NCBI GenBank assembly: GCA_037917685.1
Contig: JAVCBU010000003.1
Coordinates: forward strand, 1,941-65,940
Length of the DNA: 64,000 nt
Origin: Thermoproteota archaeon
Lineage (GTDB): Archaea; Korarchaeota; Korarchaeia; Korarchaeales; JAOZGB01
Direction: 5' to 3'
Under the pieces are notes generated by a model. It made no database searches. It was not told where the DNA came from and worked only from the letters and a program-made list of their open reading frames with translations. Of this stretch, positions 6,760 to 46,853 are shown piece by piece. Position 1 is the stretch's first letter, and every line of letters starts with the position of its first letter. The translations under genes were made by a program, and so were the position numbers.

Positions 6760-6782
6760 GGTAGCTTTGGCTACTCATACTT

Positions 6783-6871
6783 GCCCCGGTGGCGTAGTCT
6801 GGTAGCGCGGCCGCCTCGTATCCCGGTGGCTGGTGAGCGGCAGGTCGAGGGTTCGAAGCCCTCCCGGGGCT
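6783..6871 (+). tRNA. tRNA-Thr (anticodon CGU) with a 15-nt intron at the canonical 37/38 position
   Basis: Hand-folded cloverleaf. Acceptor GCCCCGG/CCGGGGC. D arm GCGU-AGUCUGGUA-GCGC. Anticodon stem GCCGC/GCGGC with loop CU-CGU-A, then the intron UCCCGGUGGCUGGUG (6821-6835), then A. T arm GAGGG-UUCGAAG-CCCUC. Discriminator U. The anticodon is at 6817-6819. Confidence 0.85.
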
Positions 6872-6878
6872 TTCCAAG

Positions 6879-7721: not shown

Positions 7722-7811
7722 ATGAAAGTATTAAGTTTAACTTTTAAGGTGCTTGGTAGAGCCTAACCTTCGCTGGGGCAGACTATGGTACCCTCTACAC
7801 TGTCACCTCGG

Positions 7812-24576: not shown

Positions 24577-24680
24577 TACATCCCACCTTACTGGGGTTAT
24601 CCATTAGCTTTATTATTATTTTAATAGTCCATTGCATGTATCAACCTTGAACAACGGTTCTCGGCTGAGAGTGATTGACA

Positions 24681-26405: not shown

Positions 26406-27481
26406 GATTATGGGAGAAAATTGCGACGGCTGCCATAGTTGCCGCGATAGCCCTGGTCACCCTCGCCCTGTGGGTTAAGGGAATACTCGTACAGTTCCTC
26501 TGGGTCATGGTAAACTTCACTGCATTCATGATTGGGCCGATAAGCATCATAGGACTCATAATGCTTAAATTGCTCGGGCTCAGAGGGATAAGAAGCGTAC
26601 TAACCTATGAGAAGAAGGACAGTCTGGTTCACAGAACAGACCCAAGGGTAAAGTTCCTATATGTCCTATGCGTCTCACTACTTTCAGCACTGCTAGGCTG
26701 GTATCCCCTACTTATAGGGCTGTCACTGGCAACCCTAATACCCTGGCTCTATGCTAGACCATCAAAGACACGTGCGAAGGCAGTACTATACCTCTGCATC
26801 CTCCCACTGTTTGGAATGGCATGGGGGCAAGGCCTATACTTCGGACTTGGCTTCGACTGGCCTGTCACCATAATATACAGAATCCCCCAGTTGAAATTTA
26901 ACCTGTCAGGGACGCACTCCTTCCCTGCAATGATAGGCCTCGAGAGAATAACTATTGAAGGCTTAAGATACGGTTTTCTCCAAGGCTTTAGAGTCGTAGC
27001 AGTAAACAGCGCGGCACTCCTCGTGCTGATAACCACCAGACCCTCAGATCTCGTATTCGGCCTAACAAAGATGTTCCTACCATACGAGATCGGGTTCATG
27101 GTTCTAACAGCTATAAGATTTATTCCCAAGTTCCTACATGACGCTGGAATAGTGCTAAACGCTGAAAAGGCAAGGGGGCTTGACATGTCGGTGAAGAAAA
27201 GCTACAATCCCGTAGTCCTAGCTGGGACGCTTGGCAGGGTAATAAGGGGCTTATCCTACGTAACGATCCCCGTTGTTATATCAGCCATGAGAAGTGGGAA
27301 AAACCTAGCTGTAGCCGCAGAAACAAGAGCATTTAGAGCAAAGTCTAAGAGGACATATCTCAGGGAAATCAAAATGAAAAGGACAGACAAGATCCTAAGC
27401 ATAATTCTCATAGCAATAATGATAGCTGGGGTAATACTATCATACCTAGGCTATGGAGCACCCCCGGGAGGTGTAACCTAA
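26402..27481 (+). CDS. ecfT: ECF transporter transmembrane (T) component, CbiQ/EcfT family
   Basis: ATGA overlap with ecfA. Polytopic. Contains NAEKARGLD, the conserved ARG-type coupling motif. Confidence 0.7.
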   Translation: MRLWEKIATAAIVAAIALVTLALWVKGILVQFLWVMVNFTAFMIGPISIIGLIMLKLLGLRGIRSVLTYEKKDSLVHRTDPRVKFLYVLCVSLLSALLGWYPLLIGLSLATLIPWLYARPSKTRAKAVLYLCILPLFGMAWGQGLYFGLGFDWPVTIIYRIPQLKFNLSGTHSFPAMIGLERITIEGLRYGFLQGFRVVAVNSAALLVLITTRPSDLVFGLTKMFLPYEIGFMVLTAIRFIPKFLHDAGIVLNAEKARGLDMSVKKSYNPVVLAGTLGRVIRGLSYVTIPVVISAMRSGKNLAVAAETRAFRAKSKRTYLREIKMKRTDKILSIILIAIMIAGVILSYLGYGAPPGGVT

Positions 27482-27664: not shown

Positions 27665-28834
27665 ATGGATGTAAAGGCGCATGTTCTACTGATAATGGGC
27701 TTCATGTCAGCTGCTCTAATGCTTCCCGTAATCATCCCATCAGCTAGCCAAGAGGGAATCTCAATAACAATAATTGCACCAGCTGATAAAAACCTTAAAG
27801 ATGGAGTAATGATTTCAGGCAGGTACAGCCACATAGTTAGAATCATAGTTACTAATAACCTTGGGAGAAGCCTAAGCAACGTTGAGATAACCTGCACCAT
27901 ACCAAGCCCTATTACCGGCTATACTGATAGAACCCCTGTGATCCTGAAAGGGGATCCGACAGACATAGATAAGCTTCTGAAATATGGGGAGATGAGCACT
28001 GGAGAATGGAAAGCTGGGAAGCCATACATACTCCTAGAAAGCTTAGAGCCGGGAATACAAAATAGCATAGTAATGCAATTCTACATAAGACCCCCCGAGT
28101 CCGGAGAGATAAAAGAAAAGACAACAGTAACATTTACAGCTACCGTTACCGCTGAGGGTGAGACGTATACAGCTTCTAAACAGGTTGACATATTACCTCC
28201 ACCAATGTGGAGGGTTTACGCTACAGCGGGAATCTCACTAATAATGATACCACTGATCTACGCGGCAGGGACAAAATACCTGAAAAGGCTTGGAACCATA
28301 GACCTCATATACATGTCAATCTTCTCTGCATTAATGGTTGTCTGGGTCTGGCTGGGAAGAATGTTCATATTCCCACTGGTAAACAGAATCCCCTTCACCT
28401 ATGAGTTTGCAGTAGCCGATACTCCTTACATAATAATACTCGTCTCGGGAGCTATGGTCATCGCGAAACCGCTTTCAGTTAGCGGAATGCTGTTCATATA
28501 CAACATCGTCATGGAAGTAATCTACTACGGCATCAACCCTCTATGGTGGTCATATCCGTTTATTGAGGGGCTACCCTCAGATCTATGGCTTCTCATCAGG
28601 GGTAAAGGCGCGTTCAAGGGAAAACTAAAGTACCTTGACGGCTTTACCGTCGCAGGGCTACGTGGAGTATTCATGCAGCTAGGCCTGTTCCTGGTTTACA
28701 GGCCAGCCCTGCAACACCTCTACTTCCCATGGGGGAGGGTTCTTTTTGTCACCCTTTCATGGGCGCTAGGGAACGCGATAGCAGGTATAATAAGTGTACC
28801 AATAGGTGAAAAAATAAAGCAAGCCCTAATATAG
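27665..28834 (+). CDS. Membrane protein: N-terminal extracytoplasmic beta-sandwich (CARDB/NEW3-like) domain fused to a ~200-aa six-helix bundle (possible S-component)
   Basis: GGAGGTG SD. Signal peptide. The block VEITCTIPSP...LESLEPGIQNSIVMQFYIRPPESG...TFTATVTAEG is beta-rich. The C-terminal ~205 aa contain about 6 TM helices. Confidence 0.45.
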   Translation: MDVKAHVLLIMGFMSAALMLPVIIPSASQEGISITIIAPADKNLKDGVMISGRYSHIVRIIVTNNLGRSLSNVEITCTIPSPITGYTDRTPVILKGDPTDIDKLLKYGEMSTGEWKAGKPYILLESLEPGIQNSIVMQFYIRPPESGEIKEKTTVTFTATVTAEGETYTASKQVDILPPPMWRVYATAGISLIMIPLIYAAGTKYLKRLGTIDLIYMSIFSALMVVWVWLGRMFIFPLVNRIPFTYEFAVADTPYIIILVSGAMVIAKPLSVSGMLFIYNIVMEVIYYGINPLWWSYPFIEGLPSDLWLLIRGKGAFKGKLKYLDGFTVAGLRGVFMQLGLFLVYRPALQHLYFPWGRVLFVTLSWALGNAIAGIISVPIGEKIKQALI

Positions 28835-28844
28835 GTGAGATAAA

Positions 28845-30605
28845 ATGTCGAGGAAAGAAGCCTTGTTACTGGTGTTTATGCTAGCATTAACTCCAATGGC
28901 ATTGTCAAGGGGTCAAGGAGGCCTCGTACTTATAGATTCAACCCACGGACAGACCTACTACACATTTATGACCCTTCAACAATATCTTGAACACTACTAC
29001 GGTCTAACAGTCCAAATCCTGGAAGAAACCATATCAGAGGAAACACTGGCTGGAGCATCGGTTCTCTTCATCCCCTGCCCTGCTGAAAATACAAGCTTTA
29101 CCCCTGAAGAGCTAGATGCAATAGTAAACTTTGTGAATGGTGGAGGAGGCCTGCTACTCGGCTGTGACTCACAGTACACGTACGGAGGGAGAAACTATAC
29201 TTACGGACAGCCTTCGACACTTAACACAGTTCTCGATGCGCTTGGGATATCAGACAAAGTCAGATATACGGGAACCAACACACTTGGGGATCAGCTGCTT
29301 GACGAGTATGAAAATACTGGGAGAGAGTTTGAACCAGTAATTTCAGATTTCCCCGAACACCCAGTTACAGCCTTTATGAAGGACAAGAAGATGGTTTACT
29401 ATGGCTGTACGTTGCAGGTTGAAGATGAATCCGTAATTGTTCTGAGAGGCGGCCCGAATGCTTATAGCGTTGATATAGCAGGTAGAAAGACGTACGAGGA
29501 GGGATCAAAGCCACCGGTTGTTGCCGCAGTGGAGGTGGGAGAGGGGAGAGTCGTGATTTCAGGTAGTACAAGGCTTTTCTCGGACAGGAAGACTTACGGA
29601 GCTGCCACATCAACATACATACTTTACGAGCAAACCTATCAATTTGCATGCAACGTCTTCGCATGGCTCTCAGGGATCGAACCCATCGAGGTGGAGTTCC
29701 TTGCACCTAAAAAGCCTGTTAAGCAGCCTACCGAGAACATTATAGAGACCGCTGCCGTGCCTGAAACGGAAATCAAGGCTAAAATACTGGTAGACGCGGC
29801 GCATGGCGAATACTTCAAACCACTCCCGACAGCCCAGCTACCACAGAGTCCCCTGGCAAGGTGGGCTCAGATAATGGCTGAAAACGGCTTCCAGGTAGAC
29901 CAGCTATCAGACGGCTACATAACTACTGAACTGCTTCAGAACTATGATGTTCTGGTTATAGGTGAGCCTCAAGACATAATGTTTTCGGACGAGGAAATAC
30001 AGGCAATCCACAAATTCGTTGAGAACGGCGGTGGCCTCCTGCTGGGAACCTCCTGGTACAGGTACAACCAGCCGGACATTCTAAACCCGATCTCAGATGT
30101 TTTCGGCGTCAAGTTCAGGCTTGACGAGATAATGGATGACACGAACAACAATGGACGGGCATACTATCCAATAATCAGTGACTTCGCAGACCATCCTATA
30201 TGTCAGGGTATTTCTGCAATAGTTTACAATGGCGGATCCCTCGAAATATACGGTGAAGCCGAGCCAGTCGCGTGGGGAGACGATGACTCATATGCGCTCG
30301 ATGCGAGTGGCGTCTTCACAGTAAGAATAGGAGAGAAGCCTGTAGCCATCGCAGTAGCCACATACGGGGCTGGAAGAGTCGTTCTTACAGGAGGACTCTC
30401 ACCTTATACGGATAACAGCATCGACTTCGAAGATAATGCTAGAATGGCTGTGAACATGATAGTCTGGCTAGCAACAGGGGAGGCGCCTGAGCAGGTTGAA
30501 GTTCCTATAACAATACCCAAAGAGCTGATGATTGGCATTCCCATGCTAGTTATAGGATTCCTACTACTTTACATAGTGAAACGCAGACAGAAAGCATCCT
30601 CGTAA
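28845..30605 (+). CDS. Secreted, C-terminally anchored protein with two DUF4350/GldG-like domains
   Basis: Internal duplication: ...ELDAIVNFVNGGGGLLLGCDSQY... and ...EIQAIHKFVENGGGLLLGTSWYRY.... Both halves end in (G)AGRVV(I/L)(S/T)G. The C-terminal TM is MIGIPMLVIGFLLLYIVKRRQK. Confidence 0.55.
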   Translation: MSRKEALLLVFMLALTPMALSRGQGGLVLIDSTHGQTYYTFMTLQQYLEHYYGLTVQILEETISEETLAGASVLFIPCPAENTSFTPEELDAIVNFVNGGGGLLLGCDSQYTYGGRNYTYGQPSTLNTVLDALGISDKVRYTGTNTLGDQLLDEYENTGREFEPVISDFPEHPVTAFMKDKKMVYYGCTLQVEDESVIVLRGGPNAYSVDIAGRKTYEEGSKPPVVAAVEVGEGRVVISGSTRLFSDRKTYGAATSTYILYEQTYQFACNVFAWLSGIEPIEVEFLAPKKPVKQPTENIIETAAVPETEIKAKILVDAAHGEYFKPLPTAQLPQSPLARWAQIMAENGFQVDQLSDGYITTELLQNYDVLVIGEPQDIMFSDEEIQAIHKFVENGGGLLLGTSWYRYNQPDILNPISDVFGVKFRLDEIMDDTNNNGRAYYPIISDFADHPICQGISAIVYNGGSLEIYGEAEPVAWGDDDSYALDASGVFTVRIGEKPVAIAVATYGAGRVVLTGGLSPYTDNSIDFEDNARMAVNMIVWLATGEAPEQVEVPITIPKELMIGIPMLVIGFLLLYIVKRRQKASS

Positions 30606-31086: not shown

Positions 31087-33759
31087 TTGACTGAAAGCAT
31101 AAAGTACGCAAGGGAAGAACTCAGCTTCACTGAAGCATTAGACCTCCTGAACCCTTACGTTTCGGAATGGTTTAGGCAGAAATTCAAGAGTTTAACCCCA
31201 CCTCAAAAGCTAGCCCTCAAACCAATCTCAGAGGGCGAAAACACTCTTATTTCATCCCCTACAGGAACAGGGAAAACTCTTTCAGCGTTTCTAATGGTTA
31301 TTAGTAAGCTTTTCGACCTTGCAGCCTCCGGGGAGCTTGAAGACCAAGTTTACTGTCTGTACGTTTCTCCACTGAAAGCTCTTGGGAACGACATTCATAG
31401 AAACCTGTCCGAGCCACTAAGGGAGATATATAGTCTAGCTTCTACCAGGAACTCCCAGCTCCCGATGATCAGACATCTCGTTAGAACTGGCGATACACCA
31501 AGTAGTGTTAGGCAGGCGATGCTTAGAAAACCGCCGCATATCCTAATCACTACGCCAGAATCTCTAGCTATAATGTTAAATGCGCCAAAGTTCAGATTCA
31601 AACTATCCGGGATCAACTGGGTAATAGTAGATGAGATTCACTCCCTATACGAGTCTAAACGTGGAACTCATCTTAGTCTCTCTCTTGAAAGACTCTCCAA
31701 CCTTGTCGATAAGGAACCTGTAAGGATAGGGCTGTCTGCAACCATACACCCGTTAGAAGAGGTTGCAAAGTTCCTCGTAGGATACAATGAGGATGGAAGG
31801 CTTAGGAACTGTGTAATTGTTGATGCAAGCTATGTTAAAAAGAAGGATCTCCTAGTACTGAGCCCTGTTGAGGATCTGATATACACTCCCGCATCAGTAG
31901 TGTCGGAGGAAATGTATAAGATGCTTCTATACCTGATTAGAAGCCACAGAACCACTCTGATATTTACAAACACTAGGAGTGGAACTGAAAGGGTGTCATT
32001 CCATCTTAAACACCTAGGAGAGAAGGCTACTCTCCTCGGGGAGGACGTTGGGGCGCATCATAGCTCTCTTTCACGAGACGTGAGGCTTGACGTAGAACAG
32101 AAGCTTAAAGAGGGAAAACTAAAGGCTGTGGTAAGTTCAACGTCCCTGGAGCTTGGAATAGATATAGGTTATATAGACCTTGTCGTTCAGCTTGGCTCTC
32201 CAAAGTCTGTTACACGATGCCTTCAAAGAGTTGGCAGGTCAGGACATAAACTCCACGACACTGTTAAGGGCAGGTTTATATGTATGGATAGAGACGACCT
32301 GGTAGAAGTAGCCGTAATGGTTAGAGAAGCATACCGGAACAGGCTTGACAGGACAAGGATGCCTAGAAACTGTCTTGACGTACTTGCCCAGCATATCGTC
32401 GGGATGGCTATCGAGCGTAAGTGGGATGCCATAGAGGCTTACAAACTGGTTAGGAGAGCATATCCCTACCGCGAACTATCCTGGGAGGATTTCGAGGAAG
32501 TGCTGAAATATCTAAGCGGCGGCTACCAGACGCTTGAGAAATTTAAGGTGTACGGTAAGATATGGTACGACCCGGAGGAGAAAGTATTCGGAAGAAGGGG
32601 CAAGTACGCTAGGGTAATCTATAGCCTTAACATAGGTACGATACCAGACCACGTCGCCGTAAAGGTCTACGGGGAGGACGGCAGCTACATAGGGAAGATA
32701 GAGGAGGAGTTCCTTGAGAGACTTGTCCCAGGAGACAGGTTTGTCCTTGGTGGAAAAGTGTACGAGTTCGTTAGGGCAAGGGGGATGAAGGCATACGTCA
32801 AGCCTGCATTCGACATGAAGCCGACAGTTCCAAGCTGGTTCTCCGAGATGCTACCTTTAAGCTTCGACCTTGCAATCCAGATCTCCAAGTTTAGAGAGGA
32901 CTACTTCAAGAAGCTGGAAGCTGGCATGGATGAGGAAGAAATAGAAAGATACGTGGAGAACTTCAGGGTTGAGGAGAAAGCAGCAAAGGCGATTCACAGA
33001 TACCTCAAGCTCCAATATCAATTTCTGAGATCCATTGGTGTCAAAAACCCAAGACCATATGCTAAAATCTACATTGAAAATTATCTAGACGAGTATGGAA
33101 GGAGAAACATAATATTTCACACACTATTCGGCAGAAGAGTAAACGACGCACTTTCAAGGGCCTACGCATACGTCTTGGGCAGAAAAATAAACAGAAACGT
33201 TGGAGTAACAGTGACCGACAACGGGTTCTCCCTAATAGTCCCAGCTAATGTTAAAATAGACTGGGGATTCCTTAGGGAAGTCACAAGCAAGAACATAAGA
33301 GAACTATTAGAACAGGTTGTCGGGAAAACAGAACTCATGGCACGCAGGTTCAGACATTGCGCGGCAAGAGCGTTCATGATACTCAGAAACTACAAGGGCC
33401 ACGAAATCAAGGTTAGCAGGCAGCAGATCAGCGCTGCCAAACTACTCGAAATATGCAGAGAGATACCTAACTTTCCAATAGTTAAAGAAACATTCAGAGA
33501 GATTACTGAGGACCTAATGGATGTCGAAAACGCTGTTAAAGTACTCAAAATGCTGGAAAGCGGGCGGATAAGTTTCCACCTGCTTCCAGAGCTGAGTGTT
33601 CCAAGCCCATTTGCGCATAACATAGTGTTACAAGGTTTATCCGATGTTATACTTATGGAAGATAAGAGATCCATGCTGGAAAGATTTCACAGACAGGTTC
33701 TATCAATAATTTCAGAGAAGCACGTGGTTAAAGGCCAACAAGCTATATCTCTCTCATAG
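31087..33759 (+). CDS. lhr: Lhr-family (Lhr-core, COG1201-type) superfamily 2 DNA/RNA helicase
   Basis: TTG start. Motifs SSPTGTGKTLSAF, VIVDEIHSL, LSATI, HHSSLSRDVRLDVEQKLKEGKLKAVVSSTSLELGIDIG and RVGRSGH. The long C-terminal region is DEAD-associated-like. Confidence 0.85.
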   Translation: MTESIKYAREELSFTEALDLLNPYVSEWFRQKFKSLTPPQKLALKPISEGENTLISSPTGTGKTLSAFLMVISKLFDLAASGELEDQVYCLYVSPLKALGNDIHRNLSEPLREIYSLASTRNSQLPMIRHLVRTGDTPSSVRQAMLRKPPHILITTPESLAIMLNAPKFRFKLSGINWVIVDEIHSLYESKRGTHLSLSLERLSNLVDKEPVRIGLSATIHPLEEVAKFLVGYNEDGRLRNCVIVDASYVKKKDLLVLSPVEDLIYTPASVVSEEMYKMLLYLIRSHRTTLIFTNTRSGTERVSFHLKHLGEKATLLGEDVGAHHSSLSRDVRLDVEQKLKEGKLKAVVSSTSLELGIDIGYIDLVVQLGSPKSVTRCLQRVGRSGHKLHDTVKGRFICMDRDDLVEVAVMVREAYRNRLDRTRMPRNCLDVLAQHIVGMAIERKWDAIEAYKLVRRAYPYRELSWEDFEEVLKYLSGGYQTLEKFKVYGKIWYDPEEKVFGRRGKYARVIYSLNIGTIPDHVAVKVYGEDGSYIGKIEEEFLERLVPGDRFVLGGKVYEFVRARGMKAYVKPAFDMKPTVPSWFSEMLPLSFDLAIQISKFREDYFKKLEAGMDEEEIERYVENFRVEEKAAKAIHRYLKLQYQFLRSIGVKNPRPYAKIYIENYLDEYGRRNIIFHTLFGRRVNDALSRAYAYVLGRKINRNVGVTVTDNGFSLIVPANVKIDWGFLREVTSKNIRELLEQVVGKTELMARRFRHCAARAFMILRNYKGHEIKVSRQQISAAKLLEICREIPNFPIVKETFREITEDLMDVENAVKVLKMLESGRISFHLLPELSVPSPFAHNIVLQGLSDVILMEDKRSMLERFHRQVLSIISEKHVVKGQQAISLS

Positions 33760-34084
33760 TGTCGATCAGTTTCCTGTAAAGCTTGAATTCTTCCTCGTTA
33801 ACTATGTGAAATTCGAACGGCTCATCGAACCCCGAATCCCTAAGTAACGCAATTGCAAATTTAGGCTTCAGCCTCGTCTTAACAAGGATATCAATATCAC
33901 TTAAGAGGCAGCTATTGTTCTTCGCTACAGAGCCGAAAATGTAAATCCTGCAGTCTCTATCATGTTCTCTAAGGATTCTCTTCATCTTTTCCAGGTATGA
34001 TGGCAAGTTCCTAAAATATTCAGCACGTTTCTTAGCCTCTCTTACCAATAGCTTTTCTAACAAACTCCTCAACCTCCACGGCAA
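33743..34084 (-). CDS. Minimal nucleotidyltransferase (MNT), second copy
   Basis: IYIFGSVAKNNSCLLSDIDILV. The start is uncertain (ATG 34084 or TTG 34048). It overlaps the end of the upstream HEPN gene and the 3' end of lhr (convergent). Confidence 0.7.
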   Translation of the reverse strand: MPWRLRSLLEKLLVREAKKRAEYFRNLPSYLEKMKRILREHDRDCRIYIFGSVAKNNSCLLSDIDILVKTRLKPKFAIALLRDSGFDEPFEFHIVNEEEFKLYRKLIDTMREI

Positions 34085-34433
34085 AATCCTTCAGCCTTTC
34101 AGCTTCATCCCTTTCAAACTCCCTCGGGAAATATCTAGCTGTTATGTAGGCATCCTCCAAGCTTGAAAATTCTATTGACCTCTTTCTCGCGAATTGTTCA
34201 AACTCATCTTTAAGCTCAAGGTACTCTCCAAGAAGTAGAAAAAGTTTCCTTAACATATGGGTTTTAGGGAATTCTAACCCGCATTCGAGCAGTTTTGCCT
34301 TAAGAAATAGCTGCAGCGACTGTTCTATGTTGAAAATAGCTAGATCATAGTCGCCTTTAGAATAGTGGTACTCAGCCGCACCCATAAACTTCCTAGATCT
34401 CTCAAGGAGTATGGAGATCTCCTCTTTCCTCAC
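34032..34433 (-). CDS. HEPN-domain protein, second copy (intact)
   Basis: Motifs ERSRKFMGAAEYHYSKGDYDLAIFNIEQSLQLFLKAKLL and EDAYITARYFPREF. The track ORF (to 34637) is over-extended. GTG 34433 or TTG 34454 lies just downstream of TTAATATAT (34455-34464, minus sense), suggesting a leaderless transcript. Confidence 0.7.
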   Translation of the reverse strand: MRKEEISILLERSRKFMGAAEYHYSKGDYDLAIFNIEQSLQLFLKAKLLECGLEFPKTHMLRKLFLLLGEYLELKDEFEQFARKRSIEFSSLEDAYITARYFPREFERDEAERLKDFAVEVEEFVRKAIGKRG

Positions 34434-34462
34434 ATCTTTTAAATACCACGACAAATATATTA

Positions 34463-35242
34463 ATGGTACCAGACAGAGCAGGAACATACTCTGGTGGTTT
34501 CCATTTGAGCCCATACATAACACGAGGCGTTCGGATAGTAGATGGTGGAGGGCTGTACCTTGAAGACGTGGACACCCTATTATTCTCTGATCTCCATATA
34601 GGGTATGAGCAGGCATTAGAGAAGATGGGGGTGTCAATACCGAGAAGCCAATATGGAAAGATAAAGAAAACCATACTTAACGGTATCGAAAGTCTGAATC
34701 CCTCCAGCCTATTTATCCTTGGCGATGTAAAACACGAGTTTGGGGAGTCCACAGCCCAGGAGTGGGTTGAAACAAGAGACCTCCTTGAAACACTCTTGGG
34801 AACCGGGGTTAAAATATCCGTAATTAGGGGCAACCATGACAACTATCTTATCCCAATCCTCCAAAAGCTGGGCGTCTCAATGTACGATCCAGACCAGATC
34901 GTCGAGAAATACCAGTTTATACATGGCCATAAACCTGTAGAGCTGAGGGGAGAAGTGGTCATCATGGGCCATGAACACCCCGTTTTCGCTGTAAGGGATG
35001 AGATAGGAGTTAAAGTCAGGTTTAAAGCCTACATGTACGGCAAGGTTTCAGGCCGGCTTTTGATCGTCCTCCCAGCGGTCAACCCTATTTCAACCGGAAC
35101 CGAGATAAACACTGTCCCCAAAGAAGACTTCCTCTCCCCAATCCTTAAAAACCTAAGCCTTGAAGATTTTAAAGCATTAGTATGCTACGGCGGAAAAGTT
35201 TACAATTTCCCACTTTTAATCAAAGAGACAGTGATAGACTGA
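34463..35242 (+). CDS. Metallophosphoesterase related to SbcD/Mre11 (PdeM/MPE-like, archaeal TIGR00024-type as recalled)
   Basis: Motifs SDLHIGYE, LGDVKHEF, RGNHD, IHGH and MGHEHP. Confidence 0.7.
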   Translation: MVPDRAGTYSGGFHLSPYITRGVRIVDGGGLYLEDVDTLLFSDLHIGYEQALEKMGVSIPRSQYGKIKKTILNGIESLNPSSLFILGDVKHEFGESTAQEWVETRDLLETLLGTGVKISVIRGNHDNYLIPILQKLGVSMYDPDQIVEKYQFIHGHKPVELRGEVVIMGHEHPVFAVRDEIGVKVRFKAYMYGKVSGRLLIVLPAVNPISTGTEINTVPKEDFLSPILKNLSLEDFKALVCYGGKVYNFPLLIKETVID

Positions 35243-35246: not shown

Positions 35247-35553
35247 CTCAGGCAATGCTTACTGCCTTGCATCCTTCTAAATGCACAAATCTTAGCTGAG
35301 GAGACACTTACACTATATATCGGCGATTCAGCGGTGGTGGATGACTTCACTATAACCCTAAACGACATCTATGAGGCGAAAGGAGAGCTTAGGCCATCTA
35401 TATCAGTAGAGAAGGAGGGAGTAACCCTGTCCCTTTAATCTCGTCTGAACATAGTCCAACTTCGCATCTTCTGTACCAGAGTTCAGCATGTTCTACATCT
35501 TTCTGCTCTCAATTGTGGCTGTTGCTGTGCTTTTAGTACTTAAAGGGCAATAA
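35247..35553 (+). pseudogene. Decayed 3' end of a PEF-CTERM surface-protein gene
   Basis: One start-less open frame (35247-35438) reads ...LAEETLTLYIGDSAVVDDFTITLNDIYEAKGELRPSISVEKEGVTLSL. A second frame (35455-35553) reads SNFASSVPEFSMFYIFLLSIVAVAVLLVLKGQ, which is a PEF motif, a TM helix and a basic tail. Confidence 0.5.
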
Positions 35554-35684
35554 TCTCCTCCCTTTTTGTTAGACTGGTCTGATGGGCTGGAGCCACGCGA
35601 GCCTGTGGCGTGCGTGGTTTCCCACTTTTGGTTGGAGGAGTAGTTTTAAGAGATACTGTGTGGTATTGATAGTTTAGGATTTCA

Positions 35685-37064
35685 ATGTATGCAGGAGATT
35701 CTGAAGCCATATGCCCCAGCTGCGGCAGGTATATTGGTCCAAGGGATGTCTGCCCATACTGTGGTGCACGCGTTAAGAAGAGGCTGAGCGTTAGACTTCT
35801 TAAGATAGCTGCAGTCCTGCTAGCGGTTGTAGGCCTTCTAACTGTGAGGTTCGTAGCAGTGTATATTCAAACTCCTGTTGTAAAGGTTTCAGAGATAAAG
35901 CCTTCCATGAACTATGCACACATAAAAATGACAGGCATAGTTACCCGCTATCCCTCGCTGTACAGCGATGGTTCCCTGTCATTCTGGATAGATGACGGGA
36001 CAGGGGAGATCATGGTTAAAGCATATCGCTTTGAGGCCCAGGAGCTGCTTCAGTCCGGAAATGTTCCGGCCATGGGAGACAGGGTAGAAGTAGAAGGGAG
36101 TATTAGAATTAGAGAGGATTTCCAGTACTTGGTAATAGATCTCCCAAGCAAACTTGTTGTTGTAAAGCCCAATGTTTCAGGAAGCTATAGCCCAGCTGAA
36201 ATAGGGCTCGAACACCTAGGCCTAAAGGTTGAAGTGGTTGGGACAGCGTCTGGTGTAAGAGAAACAAGCAGCGGAGGTATAATCCTCTACCTTGAGGATG
36301 TTGGGGGGAACATTCAGGTTTACATACCTCCAATACTCCGTGTTCTAGGCTTCAACGAAACCATAATGGACGGTGTAAGGCTCAAAGTCGTAGGCTACGT
36401 CTCCCTATACCAGGGGGAGCTTGAAGTAGTCCCGGGAATGCCTCAAGAAATAATAGTGCTATCCCAGGTATTTGAATACGGCAGGGTAAGCATAGGCATG
36501 GTCAACGAGACCCTAGTCGGATCAATAATCGAGATAGAGGGTGAAATAGTGGAGGTTAGAACCTACAGCTCCGGCACACTTGTGAAAATAGACGACGGAA
36601 CCGGAACCCTCGACGTGTGGATACCAGTAGAGATCTACAGCGAGCACCCTAAAGTTGCCATGATAGCGCCCACAGCCAGGGCAAGGGCCAAAGGGCTATT
36701 GGCTGTCTACAAGGACAAGCTTGAAATTAAGGTTTCCAGGGTTGAAGACTTCCAGCTGCTGGAGGAGCCCGCCATAGAGATAACATCAATAGCCTCCATA
36801 ACGGAGTCAGACGAGGGGAGACTATTCATGATACAGGCTGAAATAACAGATGTGGTTCAGCTCTCAGCAGGACTTAAACTAGTAGTATCAGATGGCACAG
36901 GGACGATAGCTGTCTGGATATGGAACGACCTTCTAGAACAGATTATGATAGCAGACCAGTTTAAGCCGGGCGTGAAGATAAGGATCATAGGACAGCTTGT
37001 CATCTACAAGGGGACACTTGAACTGCAGCCTCTAAGCCCTGAATCAATAGAAATAATAGGGTAG
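35685..37064 (+). CDS. Membrane-tethered protein: N-terminal zinc ribbon, one TM helix, four tandem OB-fold-like domains
   Basis: CPSCGRYIGPRDVCPYCGARV, then KKRLSVRLLK, then the TM helix IAAVLLAVVGLLTVRFVAV. Four repeats follow of the pattern G.V....SG...(I/V)DDGTG.I.VW... (FWIDDGTGEIMVKAY, YLEDVGGNIQVYIP, KIDDGTGTLDVWIP, VVSDGTGTIAVWIW). Confidence 0.6.
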   Translation: MYAGDSEAICPSCGRYIGPRDVCPYCGARVKKRLSVRLLKIAAVLLAVVGLLTVRFVAVYIQTPVVKVSEIKPSMNYAHIKMTGIVTRYPSLYSDGSLSFWIDDGTGEIMVKAYRFEAQELLQSGNVPAMGDRVEVEGSIRIREDFQYLVIDLPSKLVVVKPNVSGSYSPAEIGLEHLGLKVEVVGTASGVRETSSGGIILYLEDVGGNIQVYIPPILRVLGFNETIMDGVRLKVVGYVSLYQGELEVVPGMPQEIIVLSQVFEYGRVSIGMVNETLVGSIIEIEGEIVEVRTYSSGTLVKIDDGTGTLDVWIPVEIYSEHPKVAMIAPTARARAKGLLAVYKDKLEIKVSRVEDFQLLEEPAIEITSIASITESDEGRLFMIQAEITDVVQLSAGLKLVVSDGTGTIAVWIWNDLLEQIMIADQFKPGVKIRIIGQLVIYKGTLELQPLSPESIEIIG

Positions 37065-38393
37065 GTGGCGAAAATGCCGGATTTCATGGCCTACGTGCTA
37101 TTCACACTTCTGGGGACGCTTATAGGCTCCATACTAAGCCTCATACCGTCACTCCACGTGTACAACGTCCTAGGAATACTTGTAATGTTTTCTGAAACCA
37201 TTGCTGTACATGTAAGCCTCGACAGGATAGCATTCATGCTTATAGGAATGGTTGTGGCATACGGCTTTCTCAATACCTTATCAACAGTTTACATCGGAGC
37301 CCCAGACGACAGCACGATATTCGTAGTATTCCCAAGCCAGAAGTACCTACTGGTGAGGAGGGGTCATGAAGCCACCCTCCTAGTAGGAATAGGAGGGCTT
37401 GCAGGCATAGCATTCCTCGTAGCCTTCTCCCCCCTAGCTGTGACGATATTCCCACCCCTACGCCAGCTCCTATCAGACCACCTACTCTGGATTCTCGTAG
37501 CCATCACAATATACATGTTTATGACAGAGTTTCCAAGGGAGACAGACAGGCCTAAGACGAGAAAGGGAAGGCTCTGGGAGGCGTGGAGAAGCCTGATAAT
37601 GGGGTGGATGGTTTTCGGGCTTTCAGGTTTGCTAGGCTTCATAACGTTCAACAAGCCTATAACACCGTTCCAGAACGCGTTCCAAAATCTTCTACCAGTA
37701 TTCATAGGGCTGTTTGCAATACCATGGATGCTTCTAAACATAATATCAAGGGTAAAGGTGCCAGAGCAGTATATAGCAGAGAGCGTAGACGTCGACCCAG
37801 TAGAGATATTCAGGGGAGCCTCAGCAGGATGCCTTGGAGGAATATTTGCAGCCTTCTTTCCGATGGTGACGGGCGGGATAGGGGCATTCCTGGCAGGCCA
37901 CGCTACAGCTCAGAAGGGAGATAGGCCATTCCTGATATCGCAGGGTGCAAACCGCGTAGTATACTATGTCGGAAGCTTCCTCCTACTATTCGTGCCAACA
38001 CTACACCTAACAAGGGGAGGGGCTGCATGGATACTCACAACCATGTACCAGCCTAAGACATGGCAGGAATACTACACAGCAGTAGCCATGATCGCCCTCT
38101 CAGGCGGAATATCCTTCATACTCCTAGTATACGCATCCAAGCTCTATGCAAGACTCGTCTCAAAGGTTAGCTACCGAAAGCTCTCAGCACTAGGCCTAAC
38201 GGCGGTAATAGCAATAGTCCTAATATTCACAGGGCCAGCAGGACTACTCGTAGCCATGACCGCTGCTGGAATAGGTCTAATGGCAAACCTGTTCCACACA
38301 AGAAGGATGAACCTCCTAGGATGCCTACTTCTACCAATGATCCTTGACCTATCAGGATACACAGGAACCTTAGCAAACCTCTTAGGACTATAA
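37065..38393 (+). CDS. TctA/DUF112-like polytopic permease
   Basis: The start abuts the upstream stop (GTG 37065 or ATG 37074). About 10-12 helices. The segments GSILSLIPSLHVYNVLG and YIGAPDDSTIFVVFPSQKYLLVRRGHEATLLVGIGGLAG resemble TctA signature regions as recalled. Confidence 0.45.
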   Translation: MAKMPDFMAYVLFTLLGTLIGSILSLIPSLHVYNVLGILVMFSETIAVHVSLDRIAFMLIGMVVAYGFLNTLSTVYIGAPDDSTIFVVFPSQKYLLVRRGHEATLLVGIGGLAGIAFLVAFSPLAVTIFPPLRQLLSDHLLWILVAITIYMFMTEFPRETDRPKTRKGRLWEAWRSLIMGWMVFGLSGLLGFITFNKPITPFQNAFQNLLPVFIGLFAIPWMLLNIISRVKVPEQYIAESVDVDPVEIFRGASAGCLGGIFAAFFPMVTGGIGAFLAGHATAQKGDRPFLISQGANRVVYYVGSFLLLFVPTLHLTRGGAAWILTTMYQPKTWQEYYTAVAMIALSGGISFILLVYASKLYARLVSKVSYRKLSALGLTAVIAIVLIFTGPAGLLVAMTAAGIGLMANLFHTRRMNLLGCLLLPMILDLSGYTGTLANLLGL

Positions 38394-38825
38394 CCGTAAT
38401 AGAAGTGGAAAGGATGCTCCATCACGTCTAAAACATAGACCTATGATCTAATAGAGTTCTAGCCACTATGGCGGAGAGTCTACGCTCACTTGCACGACAG
38501 ATGACAAGATGACTGATGAATATCTGTTGCTTAGAGAAAACCGACAGGTGATATCCCCTACTATTTGGTATACTCCCGATTAGAGCATACTGGATAATAA
38601 AGAGAAAGCGGAAAATACCAAGCGAAGAGGCAGCATCATCCATAGTAGACTTCATAGAAAGGTACGACGTTCCCAAGATTTCGCTGGAGAGGGGGACAAT
38701 TATACCTAACGGAGGTTAGGTATAATTTAGACATGCTGTAATTTGCCTGCAACCTTTAAGCTGTTCTTAGGGAAATTCTTTATTTAAGCCTTGCGTACTC
38801 ATAGTTAAGGGGTTGTAGGTTGAAG

Positions 38826-39842
38826 ATGATTACACACTTCAGCCTTGGGCTTGCGATTGCCAGCTTCTTTAAGGAGATAGTTTTAAAGTCCACCATGGAT
38901 GTTCCTTTGCTTGCTCTTGGTGGTGCATTCGCTCTCCTACCTGACTTTCTGGATTTTAAATTCTGGAAGTTTATGGAAAAGTACGACTATGTAGCCGATC
39001 CTGACCCCAACGATCCTGACCCTAAGATGGTGGCGGAAACTATCGCCAGGGCAATCGACGAGGCATACGAGACTGAAAGGATGGTGAGGGTTAAGCTACA
39101 TACCATGCAGCTTGGCTTCGACCACTGGCGTCAGTACCAGGTTGAATTCGACCAGGAGGAGAGGAAGATCCGTGTGAGAATAGGCCCGGTTGTTAGTACT
39201 GGTAAGGTTCCCTACCCAGAGACCGAGCCTCCCGAGGACAAGGCTTTGGGCGAGGCGGAGACTAAGCATCCTTTCCTAAAAATATATCCTAAGCCGACTG
39301 TGATAGACATCTTCACAGGGCCATCGATGGGGTTCAAGAGAGAGGGAGATTTGGTAAAGATACATTTCATACCGTTCCATAGGGAGTGGAGCCACAGCTT
39401 CACGGTTGGGGCTCTGATAGGTGCTATTGTAGCGCTCCTTGGAGGATTAAGCCTTGGATTGATGGCTATGATCGCGTTTTGGAGCCATGTGCTCTCAGAT
39501 CAGGTGGGCTTCTTAGGCTGTAACCTGCTCTGGCCATTTACCAAGGAGAGAACTCCTGGGTTCAAGCTTGCAGAGAGCGCCCATCCAGCTGCGAACTTTT
39601 CAACCGTATGGGCGTCTATAACAACAGTGATATGGAACCTTAACAGGTACGCCGAGCAGCAGGTATTATTCATCGATCCCTCTAAGTATTTCACAATGGT
39701 TGTCTTTCTACCGCCGGCATTGATCATAGGGGCAACATCCCTATACTACCGTAGAATAGGGCGGCCTGTAAGAACAGAGCTGGAACTGGAGGCTGAGGAG
39801 GCGCTGACAGAGGAGGAAGGACCATTTAAAGAGGGAGGATAG
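38826..39842 (+). CDS. Membrane-bound metal-dependent hydrolase-like protein (YdjM/DUF457-like) with a soluble insert
   Basis: Motifs MITHFSLGLAI, LLPDFLDF and HREWSHSF. The track ORF starts at TTG 38820. Confidence 0.5.
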   Translation: MITHFSLGLAIASFFKEIVLKSTMDVPLLALGGAFALLPDFLDFKFWKFMEKYDYVADPDPNDPDPKMVAETIARAIDEAYETERMVRVKLHTMQLGFDHWRQYQVEFDQEERKIRVRIGPVVSTGKVPYPETEPPEDKALGEAETKHPFLKIYPKPTVIDIFTGPSMGFKREGDLVKIHFIPFHREWSHSFTVGALIGAIVALLGGLSLGLMAMIAFWSHVLSDQVGFLGCNLLWPFTKERTPGFKLAESAHPAANFSTVWASITTVIWNLNRYAEQQVLFIDPSKYFTMVVFLPPALIIGATSLYYRRIGRPVRTELELEAEEALTEEEGPFKEGG

Positions 39843-39843
39843 A

Positions 39844-40442
39844 CTGGGAAAGCTTGGAAGAGAATTCTACCGTAGAGATGCTGTTACGGTTGCAAGGGAC
39901 CTACTTGGGAAACTTCTAGTGCATAGCTCGTCTGAGGGCTTGACATCGGGGATAATCGCCGAGACAGAGGCATACATGGGCGTTCATGACAGGGCATCCC
40001 ACACATATGGGGTAGAAGGACGAAGAGGACTGAAACGCTCTACGGACCCCCTGGGACCCTCTATGTCTACCTGGCATATGGAATCCACAGCCTTCTAAAC
40101 ATAGTGGTAGGCCCTGAAGAGGAGCCTATGGCTGTACTCCTGAGATCACTTATCCCATTTGAAGGCCTAGATATTATGGCTAAAAGAAGGGGGGTAGTGA
40201 TTAGGGGGGAGAAGGATGTTTCCAAGCTGTGCCGTGGACCTGGAAACCTGACCAGGGCGATGGGAATAACGGTTGATCATAATGGTGTAGATATCACTGG
40301 GGATAAAATCTACATTGTAGATATTGGCTACAGGGATTTCGACCTGGGGATAAGTAGCAGGATTGGTGTCGACTATGCAGGTGAGGATGCACTTAGACCT
40401 TGGAGATTCTATTTTAAGAACTCACCCTATGTATCAAAGTAG
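39844..40442 (+). pseudogene. mpg: 3-methyladenine DNA glycosylase (Mpg/AAG family), frameshifted at a G4 run and without a canonical start codon
   Basis: Frame A reads (L)GKLGREFYRRDAVTVARDLLGKLLVH...IIAETEAYMGVHDRASHTYG. After GGGG at 40009-40012 the family sequence continues in another frame: GRRTKRTETLYGPPGTLYVYLAYGIHSLLNIVVGPEEEPMAVLLRSL.... A fifth G would restore the frame. The only in-frame upstream candidate start is CTG 39844. Confidence 0.75.
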
Positions 40443-40483: not shown

Positions 40484-41125
40484 ATGGAGGTTGAAAGGAT
40501 TGTTGTAGGCATGTTAGGAGCGAACTGCTACATCATATATTGCCCCGGCACCAGGGAAGCTATGATCGTTGACCCAGGCGGCGACGGTGACAAGATCCTG
40601 GGAGTGGTTAAGTCGCTCGGGCTTTCAGTAAGGTATATTGTGAATACTCATGGGCACGCCGATCATACCGCGGCTAATAGCATTGTAAAGGCGGCTACTG
40701 GGGCACCAATAGCTATACATAGGGATGATGCATACCTGCTTAAGGATTTAACTCAGAAATACTGGTATCCGGAATTCAAAACCTCCAAGCCGGATATTCT
40801 ATTAGAGGATGGGATGGTTTTAGGGTTCGAATCTAAACATGGCCAGGTCAAATTCAAGATCATACATACGCCTGGCCACACTGCCGGGAGTATCTGCCTA
40901 TACCGGTCTAGAAGGCTGTTTTCAGGAGACACCGTCTTTAGGGGAGGCATAGGAAGAGTAGACCTAGCCTCTTCAAGGCCTAAACTCATGCCTGCATCCC
41001 TCAAAAAGATACTGTCCCTGCCCGCTGAAACCAGGATATACCCCGGCCACGGGCCTGAGACCACAGTAGAGATAGAAGAAAGAAATATCAGGGCAATAAT
41101 CCTAAGCCTCCAGCCGGACCTGTAA
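40484..41125 (+). CDS. MBL-fold metallo-hydrolase (glyoxalase II-like)
   Basis: Motifs NTHGHADH, IHTPGHTAGS, GDTVF and PGHG. Confidence 0.8.
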   Translation: MEVERIVVGMLGANCYIIYCPGTREAMIVDPGGDGDKILGVVKSLGLSVRYIVNTHGHADHTAANSIVKAATGAPIAIHRDDAYLLKDLTQKYWYPEFKTSKPDILLEDGMVLGFESKHGQVKFKIIHTPGHTAGSICLYRSRRLFSGDTVFRGGIGRVDLASSRPKLMPASLKKILSLPAETRIYPGHGPETTVEIEERNIRAIILSLQPDL

Positions 41126-44550: not shown

Positions 44551-45858
44551 CTACTCTTGATAGACAATCTGGAAGCTGTCTCCGGCTGAGACATCCCCGT
44601 TACCGTCGGCGTCAGCCCACCTTATGACTATAGTGTGAAGGCCAGAAAGCTCAGTGTAATGGTCTTTCAGGTAGTATGCTGCGGCATAAGTGCCGTATCT
44701 TGTGCATCCCTCGATTGCAAGTACGTATCTCCCACCTTGCATTGCTAGGAATATGACTGCGTAGTCAACAGCCTTCCAGTCTGCTTTCATCCATTTGAAG
44801 CTCTGCCCTTTAACCTTCAGTGTGATGTAGTCTGATCCTATCAGAAATGAGACGTCCGCCAGACCATTTACCTCAAGACTTGCACTGTTAGCTATGGGGC
44901 CACCACATACTAGTACATTGTCCTGCTGTGCCGCTTCGAACTGGTTGTCCTTTATTGAATTCTTAATGTTAAAGACCGCTGAGAGCAGGCTTCCAGCCCT
45001 TGCATCAAGCTGATTGGCTGCCTGACCTGTGACGAGAACAACATTATTCAACGCGTTGATATTGCCCAGCGTGTATACCGGAGCCGGGCCTCCAGCGGCT
45101 GCAAGCCATGCGATCACATTCTCCACAAACTGCTGGTTGTGTTCGAAATATCCGTACTTTGTTCTCCACATGCACGAGCTGCCAGTAGCTACCACTCTGC
45201 CCTTGCCTGGCTGAGCAACCGCCACGAGAACTATCTTTTCACCGGTCTTCTCACCAGGCCCGGCTTTGTGGTCTCCATCCTCATCAGCGAAGGAGTCAAC
45301 GTCTCCCAGGACAACCCCGACAGCCGACCCTGAAAGGGTAAGCGTACCCCCGTTATATTGCAGGCTCTCCACACCTTCAGTGATCGCGTGGGGCTTTATG
45401 TTAACAGCATAGGCATAGTATGGCTGTCCAGTATTATCGGTGGGGTCGTGATAGCTGTCAACGTTGAATGTTATTCCAAAATCTTCTGTTACCCTGTTAA
45501 GGGACTCAGAGTTCACATATTTCGCCCAGTCCCCGGTTATCAAGAGGCCTCCTCCACTGGTTACATAGGACTTTATTGCTTCAGCCTCATCCCTTGTTAT
45601 GTCGGTTGCGGGATTCGTTATTATCACAACCTTATACTGCGAGAGCAAATCAAGGGTTAAAGGTCTGTCGTTTATCTCAACAATGTAGCCGAGAGACTGG
45701 ATAAACGCGAGAAACTCGTCGCACTTACTGCTGTCATAGTACTGGTTGTGAGACTCATCAAACAACACCTTGTCCTGAGCCTGCACCCTTGTAGCCGATG
45801 CGAACACGGATAGGACAGCTACTAGAACTAGGCAAGCAGCAATACTCCTCATATACAA
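44551..45858 (-). CDS. Secreted protein: DUF4350-like N-terminal domain plus a C-terminal module shared with the 50556-51836 gene
   Basis: Signal peptide MYMRSIAACLVLVAVLSVFASATRVQA. Motifs VVIITNPATDITRDEAEAIKSYVTSGGGLLITGDW and GKGRVVATGSS. C-terminal block VLVCGGPIANS...LAIEGCTRYGTYAAAYYL...WADADGNGDVSAGD. Confidence 0.55.
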   Translation of the reverse strand: MYMRSIAACLVLVAVLSVFASATRVQAQDKVLFDESHNQYYDSSKCDEFLAFIQSLGYIVEINDRPLTLDLLSQYKVVIITNPATDITRDEAEAIKSYVTSGGGLLITGDWAKYVNSESLNRVTEDFGITFNVDSYHDPTDNTGQPYYAYAVNIKPHAITEGVESLQYNGGTLTLSGSAVGVVLGDVDSFADEDGDHKAGPGEKTGEKIVLVAVAQPGKGRVVATGSSCMWRTKYGYFEHNQQFVENVIAWLAAAGGPAPVYTLGNINALNNVVLVTGQAANQLDARAGSLLSAVFNIKNSIKDNQFEAAQQDNVLVCGGPIANSASLEVNGLADVSFLIGSDYITLKVKGQSFKWMKADWKAVDYAVIFLAMQGGRYVLAIEGCTRYGTYAAAYYLKDHYTELSGLHTIVIRWADADGNGDVSAGDSFQIVYQE

Positions 45859-45959: not shown

Positions 45960-46853
45960 TTGCAGATTCACACTATATACCTAAAGATAATTCTCCTTCA
46001 GCTAATACTTTCAAGCTCCTACGCTCAGGAGGGGGTGTTCGCTAGTGATGTCAATATACAGATCAAGCTTGATGGTTTTACCTGTAATGTCTGGATCAAC
46101 ATAACCATCGTAAACATAGGAGACAAACCTTTCACAGGTACCATGATCCCTCTGTTTAGAAGCCCAACAAACGTCGAGGCATACTTTAACAATGTGAAAG
46201 TTCCAATGATGCTATCAGTCATAAATAACACGCCATACCTTGTTTTTGCGCTCTTAGAACCATTGAACCCAGGGGAATCGGGGAACCTCTCCGTGAAATT
46301 CAAAACAGGCGAGTTAATAATAGTCGAGGAAGATCTTAATGTGCTAACCCTAGACTATTTCCTCCCTGTTGGAGCTGAAAACTTCACCCTCCAAGTGATT
46401 ATACCTAAAGGCACGGGAGTAGTGTTTAGCTACCCAGAGGCAGCCGTCATAGTTCAGCAAGATGAAGCATTAAAACTTGAATATTATAAGAAGAACCTCT
46501 ATGAAAATTCAACTATACACCTTACAATAGGGTTCAGAAGGTTCACCAACGTTCACAGAAAGATATTAAGAGACATAGTGGCAATCATCGCAGTCACCAC
46601 CCCACTCATAGCATATAAGCTTGCCATACCTTATTTAAAGCTTCGTAAAGCCGTTTCAACCCTTACAAAAGACGAAGCTAAAGTTATACGGTTCCTTTAC
46701 AAGAGTGGGGGTAAGGCTTTGCAATCAGACCTCGTGGATAAGCTTGGATTTTCAAAGGCTAAGGCGAGCAGCATCGTTTCAAAACTCGCGGATAAGGGTT
46801 TTTTGGAGAAAAAACCTTCGGGGAGAACGAATCTTTTAATCCTAAAAATATAA
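45960..46853 (+). CDS. Single-pass membrane protein with an extracytoplasmic N-terminal domain and a cytoplasmic winged-helix (MarR/TrmB-like) DNA-binding domain
   Basis: Signal-like N-terminus. The ~190-aa beta-rich domain carries sequons. TM helix ILRDIVAIIAVTTPLIAYKLAI. This is followed by LTKDEAKVIRFLYKSGGKALQSDLVDKLGFSKAKASSIVSKLADKGFLEKK. Confidence 0.6.
   Translation: MQIHTIYLKIILLQLILSSSYAQEGVFASDVNIQIKLDGFTCNVWINITIVNIGDKPFTGTMIPLFRSPTNVEAYFNNVKVPMMLSVINNTPYLVFALLEPLNPGESGNLSVKFKTGELIIVEEDLNVLTLDYFLPVGAENFTLQVIIPKGTGVVFSYPEAAVIVQQDEALKLEYYKKNLYENSTIHLTIGFRRFTNVHRKILRDIVAIIAVTTPLIAYKLAIPYLKLRKAVSTLTKDEAKVIRFLYKSGGKALQSDLVDKLGFSKAKASSIVSKLADKGFLEKKPSGRTNLLILKI

Follow-up and report, generated by a model that had tools for sequence, protein, structure and literature searches.

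Positions 35685-39842 of the window, a 64,000-nucleotide stretch of contig JAVCBU010000003.1 (assembly GCA_037917685.1, positions 1,941 to 65,940 of the forward strand), encode a membrane-protein module. It comprises a membrane-anchored array of oligonucleotide/oligosaccharide-binding (OB) folds, a TctA-like polytopic membrane protein and a YdjM-like membrane protein; the YdjM-like gene is usually, not always, present in related loci. The first two genes most probably form the same kind of system as the pair MMJJ_13020/MMJJ_13030 of Methanococcus maripaludis, which natural transformation requires (Fonseca et al., 2023; PMC10133366). The OB array is proposed, with confidence a little above even, to capture DNA outside the cell for import via the TctA-like protein. 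The module genes are:

35685..37064, + strand: zinc-ribbon/transmembrane (TM)/4x OB-fold protein, 459 aa (open reading frame, PF01336, AlphaFold2)
37065..38393, + strand: TctA-like polytopic membrane protein, 442 aa from GTG 37065, likelier 439 aa from ATG 37074 (PF01970)
38820..39842, + strand: YdjM-like (PF04307) integral membrane protein, probable third component (Pfam, synteny)

Fonseca et al. (2023) screened transposon mutants of M. maripaludis. MMJJ_13020 encodes an OB-fold protein with a single TM segment, and the adjacent MMJJ_13030 a TctA family protein with 11 TM helices. In-frame deletion of either gene abolished natural transformation, and both deletions were complemented in trans. 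Polyethylene glycol (PEG)-mediated transformation still worked in the mutants and served to introduce the complementing plasmids. In Methanoculleus thermophilus, deletion of the TctA-like homolog SAMN04488571_104187 also abolished transformation. The authors proposed the TctA-like protein as the archaeal DNA transporter, since archaea lack ComEC (PMC10133366). The pairing of the two families, of which the preliminary description of the window was not aware of any account, is therefore already in the literature, while the guess made there that nucleic acid may be a ligand of the OB array agrees with the methanogen genetics.

The window pair resembles MMJJ_13020/MMJJ_13030 in layout, topology and annotation. 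In both, the gene for an OB-fold membrane protein with one TM helix lies directly upstream of a co-oriented TctA-like gene with the stop abutting the start or within 9 nt of it; in the methanogen, the TAA of MMJJ_13020 directly abuts the ATG of MMJJ_13030 (primer table of PMC10133366). Neither pair is accompanied by TctB or TctC, and the published Pfam names match those of the window (PF01336-type OB, PF01970 TctA). The window differs in its origin from an uncultured metagenome-assembled genome (MAG) and in its YdjM-like third gene, which is absent from the published account; YdjM is not mentioned in PMC10133366. The accessible part of the homolog discussion in that paper names Euryarchaeota only. 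A full-text literature search found no follow-up paper on the methanogen pair. Four comparative points made here are not mentioned in that paper, the only one found on the pair: the bacterial spread, the DUF4131-like core of the OB protein, the YdjM-like third gene and the multi-OB operons of Thermoplasmatota. The bacterial spread and the third gene are not reported in its preprint either.

A word-index search identified 94 homologs of the OB protein, 272-804 aa in length, with a variable number of OB repeats (2 to more than 8). In an exhaustive HMMER search the OB-family profile matched 507 cluster representatives at E<=1e-30, a number that rose to 3885 at E<=1e-3. The family is mainly bacterial (Chloroflexota). 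For the gene neighbourhood, 85 loci were collected, 80 from one-genome-per-species contigs and five from contig look-ups. A TctA-like gene was located downstream on the same strand in 64 of them. Thirteen of the 21 loci lacking it end less than 2 kb past the OB gene, which leaves 72 informative loci and a co-occurrence of 64/72 (89%). In the opposite direction, look-ups starting from the TctA-like gene revealed OB-fold genes immediately upstream in four of four cases (Aciduliprofundum boonei, two Thermoplasmatota contigs and a Spirochaetes MAG). OB before TctA is also the order on a Kiritimatiellales contig. One locus, from an Archaeoglobales MAG from Guaymas (L006), matches with 96% identity. 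The pair spans Archaeoglobales, Thermoplasmatota, Chloroflexota, Kiritimatiellales and a Spirochaetes MAG, and the operon linkage is thus conserved across two domains of life. The OB-to-TctA junction of all archaeal loci ranges from a 4-nt overlap to a 9-nt gap, and the neighbours other than the YdjM-like gene vary between lineages. Because the pair recurs across lineages with a tight junction while other neighbours differ, the linkage is functional and not merely inherited synteny.

Several loci carry additional genes. In eight Anaerolineae loci (L002, L010, L015, L022, L027, L041, L046, L062) the OB and TctA-like genes are separated by a further gene of about 1.6 kb. The product is repeat-rich, beta-propeller-like and predicted to be secreted in the five loci where it was clustered (L022 9402-11012, 536 aa); the product at this position in L002 has 458 aa and no Pfam match. 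Tad/Flp-type pilus genes (TadE/G-like pilins and a large vWA protein) were observed 4-7 kb 3' of the pair on the opposite strand in the Anaerolineae loci L002 (11493-13392), L033 (4907-7162) and L065 (14723-15993). They are possibly relevant, since Flp pili mediate DNA uptake in some bacteria, but may just as well reflect lineage synteny. Locus L001 (789-3228; 11276-11848) encodes an 803-aa OB-array homolog (P0003) on a contig of bacterial appearance that also encodes an ECF sigma factor, an anti-sigma factor and a bactofilin. The OB, TctA, YdjM and metallo-beta-lactamase (MBL) genes follow one another there in the order seen in the window; genes for a 312-aa protein without known function, a SpoU methylase and a double zinc-ribbon protein are interleaved.

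The TctA-like protein of the window matches PF01970 over profile positions 2-422 of 423 (E=1.9e-38, 132.6 bits, cut-off 28.9) and contains about 10-12 hydrophobic segments. This fits the permease with 10-12 helices described initially, of which the length of 442 aa is probably to be corrected to 439 aa. The TAG stop of the OB gene (37062-64) is indeed directly abutted by GTG 37065, as had been stated; the likelier start is, however, ATG 37074, 9 nt after the OB stop and preceded by a ribosome-binding-site candidate:

37063..37068, + strand: Shine-Dalgarno-like AGGTGG, 5 nt 5' of ATG 37074 and overlapping the TAG stop of the OB gene (sequence)

The 439-aa product from ATG 37074 is contained as P0095 in the protein collection (NCBI and Logan sources) with 100% identity. 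Under either start the gap between the genes is 0-9 nt, and the TctA-like protein is translated from the OB-gene transcript in tight coupling. It is 40-59% identical to the TctA-like genes 3' of OB-array genes in other archaea and bacteria. By sequence comparison it is very divergent from other TctA genes: a tblastn search of 72,556 plasmids gave only two matches, both cyanobacterial, with 21-22% identity. These were discarded as canonical TctA comparators, being only two; the one looked at had no OB neighbour. A PDB sequence search found no TctA-family structure. The absence of TctB and TctC partners, noted before, holds among the open reading frames scanned from about 18 to 52 kb of the window, and the gene tables of related loci likewise contain none. 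As a full-length PF01970 member, the protein resembles the permease of TctABC carriers (TTT family). Since neither TctB nor TctC was found, the module is no TctABC system; the partner of the TctA-like protein is an OB-array protein, and a tricarboxylate context is lacking.

The OB protein matches PF01336 in four stretches (E=1.2e-21). An AlphaFold2 model built on an alignment of 50 homologs has a mean predicted local distance difference test score (pLDDT) of 90.6 and consists of a helix at residues 36-60 followed by four beta-barrels; a single-sequence model (pLDDT 40) was unusable and was replaced by it. The gene and its product are organized as follows:

35643..35650, + strand: TATA-like box TTTTAAGA, putative module promoter, about 35 nt 5' of the OB-gene ATG (sequence reading, inference)
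35703..35777, + strand: Cys4 zinc ribbon, cytoplasmic, aa 7-31 with C10, C13, C23 and C26 (conservation, weak Pfam matches)
35790..35864, + strand: single TM helix, aa 36-60, preceded by the basic stretch RVKKRLSVRLLK (AlphaFold2, hydropathy)
35910..36164, + strand: OB1, aa 76-160, membrane-proximal, the most conserved OB domain (alignment, RPA32 match)
36180..36458, + strand: OB2, aa 166-258 (PF01336 stretch, AlphaFold2 barrel)
36474..36758, + strand: OB3, aa 264-358 (PF01336 stretch, AlphaFold2 barrel)
36774..37061, + strand: OB4, aa 364-459 (best PF01336 stretch, residues 383-449; AlphaFold2 barrel)

The CxxC...CxxC zinc ribbon, the basic stretch, the single TM helix and the four DDGTG-type turns reported in the preliminary description were all recovered, and the four repeats described as OB-like are OB folds according to the barrels of the model, Foldseek and PF01336. 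The OB and TctA-like open reading frames were also confirmed at the positions given there. In an alignment of 14 sequences C23 and C26 of the zinc ribbon are invariant and C10 and C13 nearly so; the Pfam zinc-ribbon matches at residues 7-31 are weak. Hydropathy peaks at residues 41-59, within the modelled helix. In OB1, 17 of 85 columns are invariant, among them F100, W101, Y114, R115, R141 and R143. Identity between the archaeal protein of the window and bacterial members amounts to 54% in the zinc ribbon, 48% in the TM helix and 42% in OB1, against 22-28% in OB2-4. By this comparison, the conserved core consists of the zinc ribbon, the TM helix and OB1. A micro-ORF of 21 codons (35488-35553) in the 440-bp spacer 5' of the OB gene encodes a strongly hydrophobic peptide (MFYIFLLSIVAVAVLLVLKGQ) and may be due to chance.

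One TM segment is predicted in 47 of 49 OB-family members. The window protein has six lysine or arginine residues before the helix and two after it. The family averages 3.0 in the 15 residues before the helix versus 1.4 after, with the N-terminal flank more basic in 41 of 49 members. This charge bias and the cytoplasmic-type zinc ribbon support a type II membrane protein, N-in/C-out, with the OB array outside the cell, the orientation initially assumed. The N-x-S/T sequons cited earlier are present, three in number; their excess over shuffled sequences (0.8 expected) is only marginal (P about 0.04), and they were dropped as proof that the protein faces outside. In related archaeal operons, paralogs combining PKD domains and OB arrays contain 49 versus 12.8 and 33 versus 11.8 expected sequons (shuffles, P<0.0005). 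The sequon excess and the PKD domains indicate that these large paralogs are surface glycoproteins. All three supports of the earlier proposal, an OB array outside the cytoplasm, a conserved co-occurrence of the two genes and an OB fold of the repeats, were thus recovered.

The related operons belong to Thermoplasmatota. Their first gene encodes a large protein that is anchored in the membrane and combines PKD domains with many OB repeats. It is followed by a zinc-ribbon/TM/2xOB protein of 268-282 aa and a TM/OB protein of 343-577 aa, mostly with a zinc ribbon. Next come the TctA-like gene and usually a YdjM-like gene. The window OB protein aligns with both smaller paralogs (E=1e-17 to 1e-40), one of them without zinc ribbon. 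Three OB-fold membrane proteins precede the TctA-like gene in L086 (A. boonei, 1931-9462), L087 and L088. The sequon excess of the giant PKD protein is roughly 3-4-fold. In A. boonei the YdjM-like gene is divided into two open reading frames (8330-8650 and 8635-9462).

The top Foldseek matches of the OB model in the PDB are all tandem-OB binders of DNA or other nucleic acids: p204 HINab with dsDNA (4e-17), Teb1, CST, RPA, RADX, SSB and Pot1. The best PDB sequence match to the family profile is Pyrococcus abyssi RPA32 (6e-6, profile positions 83-180), on OB1. PF13567/DUF4131 is matched by 22 of 50 OB-family members (best E 1e-8). Of three such members scanned in detail, two exceed the gathering score of Pfam, and the matched region comprises TM and OB1 in two of the three; the window protein itself has no PF13567 match at E<=0.01. 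DUF4131 is the N-terminal TM+OB module of ComEC, modelled on RPA32 and essential for competence (PMC5031224). ComEC's OB fold binds DNA experimentally with high affinity (PMC12455585).

ComEC/Rec2 and the window module both place a membrane-anchored, extracytoplasmic OB fold beside a polytopic membrane domain. TM and OB1 of many family members match the ComEC domain PF13567/DUF4131, RPA32 is the nearest solved relative of both OB folds, and both systems are tied to natural transformation, the window module via the methanogen pair. A division into binder, conduit and metal-dependent hydrolase may be common to both. Other traits differ. The polytopic protein of the window has the TctA fold, matching only PF01970 and no PF03772 competence domain; the window OB protein stays below the PF13567 threshold; each component is a polypeptide of its own; four or more OB folds take the place of a single one; and the candidate hydrolase is YdjM-like, whereas the ComEC nuclease is a metallo-beta-lactamase. 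Neither the OB nor the TctA-like protein contains an MBL domain, which is encoded by a separate gene for 213 aa at 40484-41125. The module would act most like ComEC but is not ComEC. OB folds outside the cytoplasm are also known from YhcR-type nucleases (COG4085), BOF and YgiW. JGI annotations label many OB-family members 'DNA/RNA endonuclease YhcR' on the basis of their OB domains, and the family gives weak matches to BOF and the NirD/YgiW stress OB-fold model. The OB protein differs from these in lacking nuclease and esterase domains, in being anchored by an N-terminal TM helix that bears a cytoplasmic zinc ribbon, and in its pairing with a TctA-like gene.

The YdjM-like protein of the window matches PF04307 with E=1.3e-14 (54.6 bits, cut-off 29) and has hydrophobic segments. 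In 12 other loci a homolog directly follows the TctA-like gene in the same orientation. These loci come from archaea and several bacterial phyla and include six contigs of Chloroflexota or of unclassified bacteria, the Kiritimatiellales contig, the Spirochaetes MAG, L004, a Thermoplasmata MAG, A. boonei and another Thermoplasmata archaeon. Across 12 sequences four histidines and three aspartates are invariant (H6, D42, D45, H187, H192, H223, D227), a set that fits a membrane-embedded metal centre. The YdjM family is described as putative membrane-bound metal-dependent hydrolases, and its Escherichia coli member is SOS-regulated. A literature match to 'DUF457', tried as a lead on YdjM, proved to be DUF4579 of Cap1 and irrelevant. 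A spacer of 426 bp (38394-38819) separates the TctA-like and YdjM-like genes of the window, compared with 1-11 nt in most other archaeal loci and about 300 nt, by gene call, in A. boonei. It is rich in A and T and contains TATA-like elements as well as a short inverted repeat (cctaac...gttagg). With such a spacer, the YdjM-like gene may be served by a promoter of its own.

For the proposed DNA import, the external OB array, especially the conserved membrane-proximal OB1, would capture extracellular DNA. The DNA would be handed to a membrane complex around the TctA-like protein, which might form or organize the passage through the cytoplasmic membrane. A role in DNA processing, like that of the ComEC nuclease domain, is possible for the YdjM-like protein. 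Several points weigh against this proposal. TctA proteins are secondary carriers for small carboxylates, and conduction of DNA by a TctA fold is unproven. We know of no YdjM-family protein with a known biochemical activity. The transformation defect of the methanogen mutants could be indirect. Each of the four OB domains has a net acidic character in the family (means -3.8, -7.5, -10.3 and -5.9), and electrostatics drive the binding of DNA to the ComEC OB fold. Neither a pilus gene, nor DprA, nor any other competence gene is linked to the module in the window, or consistently at the other loci.

The match to the methanogen pair itself rests on annotation, topology and architecture, and gene layout, the sequences being compared by description only. 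The N-termini taken from the primer table are MSSLILNDKKIT for MMJJ_13020 and MINNLFFLIFG for MMJJ_13030 (PMC10133366); MMJJ_13020 thus appears to be without zinc ribbon, also in contrast to the window protein. Members of the OB family without zinc ribbon do exist (L088_343, L090). Two metagenome scans, one with a degenerate pattern of the MMJJ_13030 N-terminus and one with a 21-mer from the M. thermophilus deletion primers, found nothing. A protein search seeded with a Thermoplasmata TctA-like protein reached Aciduliprofundum and no methanogen. The lists of the OB and TctA-like protein searches hold no Methanococcus entry, and no methanogen is named among ten distant cluster representatives.

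The chief alternative is secondary transport of a small solute, e.g. nucleotides, oligonucleotides, carboxylates or another anion. The single-pass OB-array protein would replace TctB/TctC as a tethered subunit outside the cell, for binding or as a scaffold, in line with the model of the preliminary description, and the transformation defect would be indirect. The full-length PF01970 match speaks for it, as the only characterized family members are the TctABC carboxylate carriers (PMC10133366); some other partner is expected where TctB and TctC are not found, and net acidic OB domains suit ligands other than DNA. The MMJJ_13030 transcript was also mildly induced under selenium limitation, together with other transporters (PMC11097638). 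Such a carrier is nevertheless unlikely, since either deletion leads to a complete and specific loss of natural transformation with PEG transformation intact, and since the OB folds are nearest to DNA-binding tandem arrays and the N-terminal domain of ComEC. Repeat numbers from 2 to more than 8 and the extra multi-OB/PKD surface proteins suggest a polymer as ligand, and the protein is very divergent from other TctA genes (21-22% identity to the two plasmid matches).

A weaker rival, which we regard as quite improbable, is a module of the cell envelope: the OB array would be a stalk, an adhesin or an assembly factor, for example for pili, S-layer or glycan handling, the TctA-like and YdjM-like proteins would have a part in envelope biogenesis, and competence would be lost through a disturbed surface machinery. 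It would account for the sequon-rich PKD/OB surface proteins of related operons, the Tad-like pilin and vWA genes that some Anaerolineae loci have at a distance of 4-7 kb, the acidity of the OB domains and the poor conservation and variable number of OB2-4, which look like spacers. No pilus or S-layer gene is consistently linked, the strong cross-domain conservation of zinc ribbon, TM helix and OB1 argues for a specific function over a spacer, and the envelopes of the hosts (archaea, Chloroflexota, Kiritimatiellales, a Spirochaetes MAG) are very different. Finally, the adjacency might be coincidental or only the inherited synteny of two functionally unrelated genes; most loci come from Anaerolineae, where an upstream GNAT gene is kept as well (36 loci). 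Overlapping or abutting frames of the pair recur, however, in Archaeoglobales, Thermoplasmatota, Kiritimatiellales, a Spirochaetes MAG and Chloroflexota with differing other neighbours, and both genes share one phenotype in M. maripaludis. Chance adjacency is effectively refuted by the conservation of the pair across domains, and this explanation is extremely improbable.

The module is flanked by Lhr (31087-33759), an SbcD-like phosphoesterase (34463-35242), the MBL-fold gene (40484-41125), a frameshifted mpg gene and a HEPN/nucleotidyltransferase pair, none of which accompanies the module consistently in the other loci. The DNA-repair neighbourhood of Lhr, a metallophosphoesterase (MPE) nuclease and mpg, pointed out in the preliminary description, is not conserved. 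The MPE nuclease, the only one of the three used as tblastn query, matched none of the other 85 loci; an MBL gene is near the pair in only three others (L001, L019, L073), and the gene tables of related loci show unrelated neighbours. The repair context was therefore rejected as a functional clue. No PADLOC defence match was obtained for the OB, TctA-like and YdjM-like proteins or the MPE nuclease. The 'mpg remnant' is instead a full-length methylpurine-DNA glycosylase gene (39832-40442) split by a frameshift near 40000-40100, its N-terminal half in the frame starting at 39832 and its C-terminal half being the open reading frame 40104-40442. Either the gene is a pseudogene or the frameshift is an error of the assembly.

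Between Lhr and the SbcD-like phosphoesterase, a HEPN (PF05168) and minimal nucleotidyltransferase (PF18765/PF01909) pair is encoded on the minus strand (33743-34637), a typical toxin-antitoxin module that shares 17 nt with the 3' end of Lhr. The region lies between the genes of two paralogous DUF4350/GIFT-domain (ABC_transp_aux-like) proteins (28845-30605, + strand; 44551-45858, - strand). The former is preceded by an ECF-type ABC ATPase (24675-26405), CbiQ (26402-27481) and a 389-aa open reading frame without Pfam match (27665-28834). Further downstream, a DUF7343/MarR-type regulator gene (45960-46853) precedes the gene of a 918-aa alpha-2-macroglobulin-like protein with MG2, A2M bait-region and CARDB domains (46986-49742), in an archaeon.

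Archaea lack ComEC, and the OB-fold/TctA-like pair known from M. maripaludis genetics is so far the only candidate for the transit of DNA across their membrane in natural transformation. It is conceivable, if on the doubtful side, that the OB/TctA-like/YdjM-like trio is a ComEC-independent DNA importer of receptor, conduit and strand-processing hydrolase, common to Euryarchaeota and several bacterial phyla (Chloroflexota, Kiritimatiellales, a Spirochaetes MAG). If true, DNA uptake would have been solved a second time, by evolutionarily independent means. The size of the family, its spread across phyla, the TM+OB core resembling the ComEC N-terminus and the third membrane protein provide targets for biochemical and structural work. 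The distribution suggests that uncultured Archaeoglobales, Thermoplasmatota and Anaerolineae may be naturally competent.

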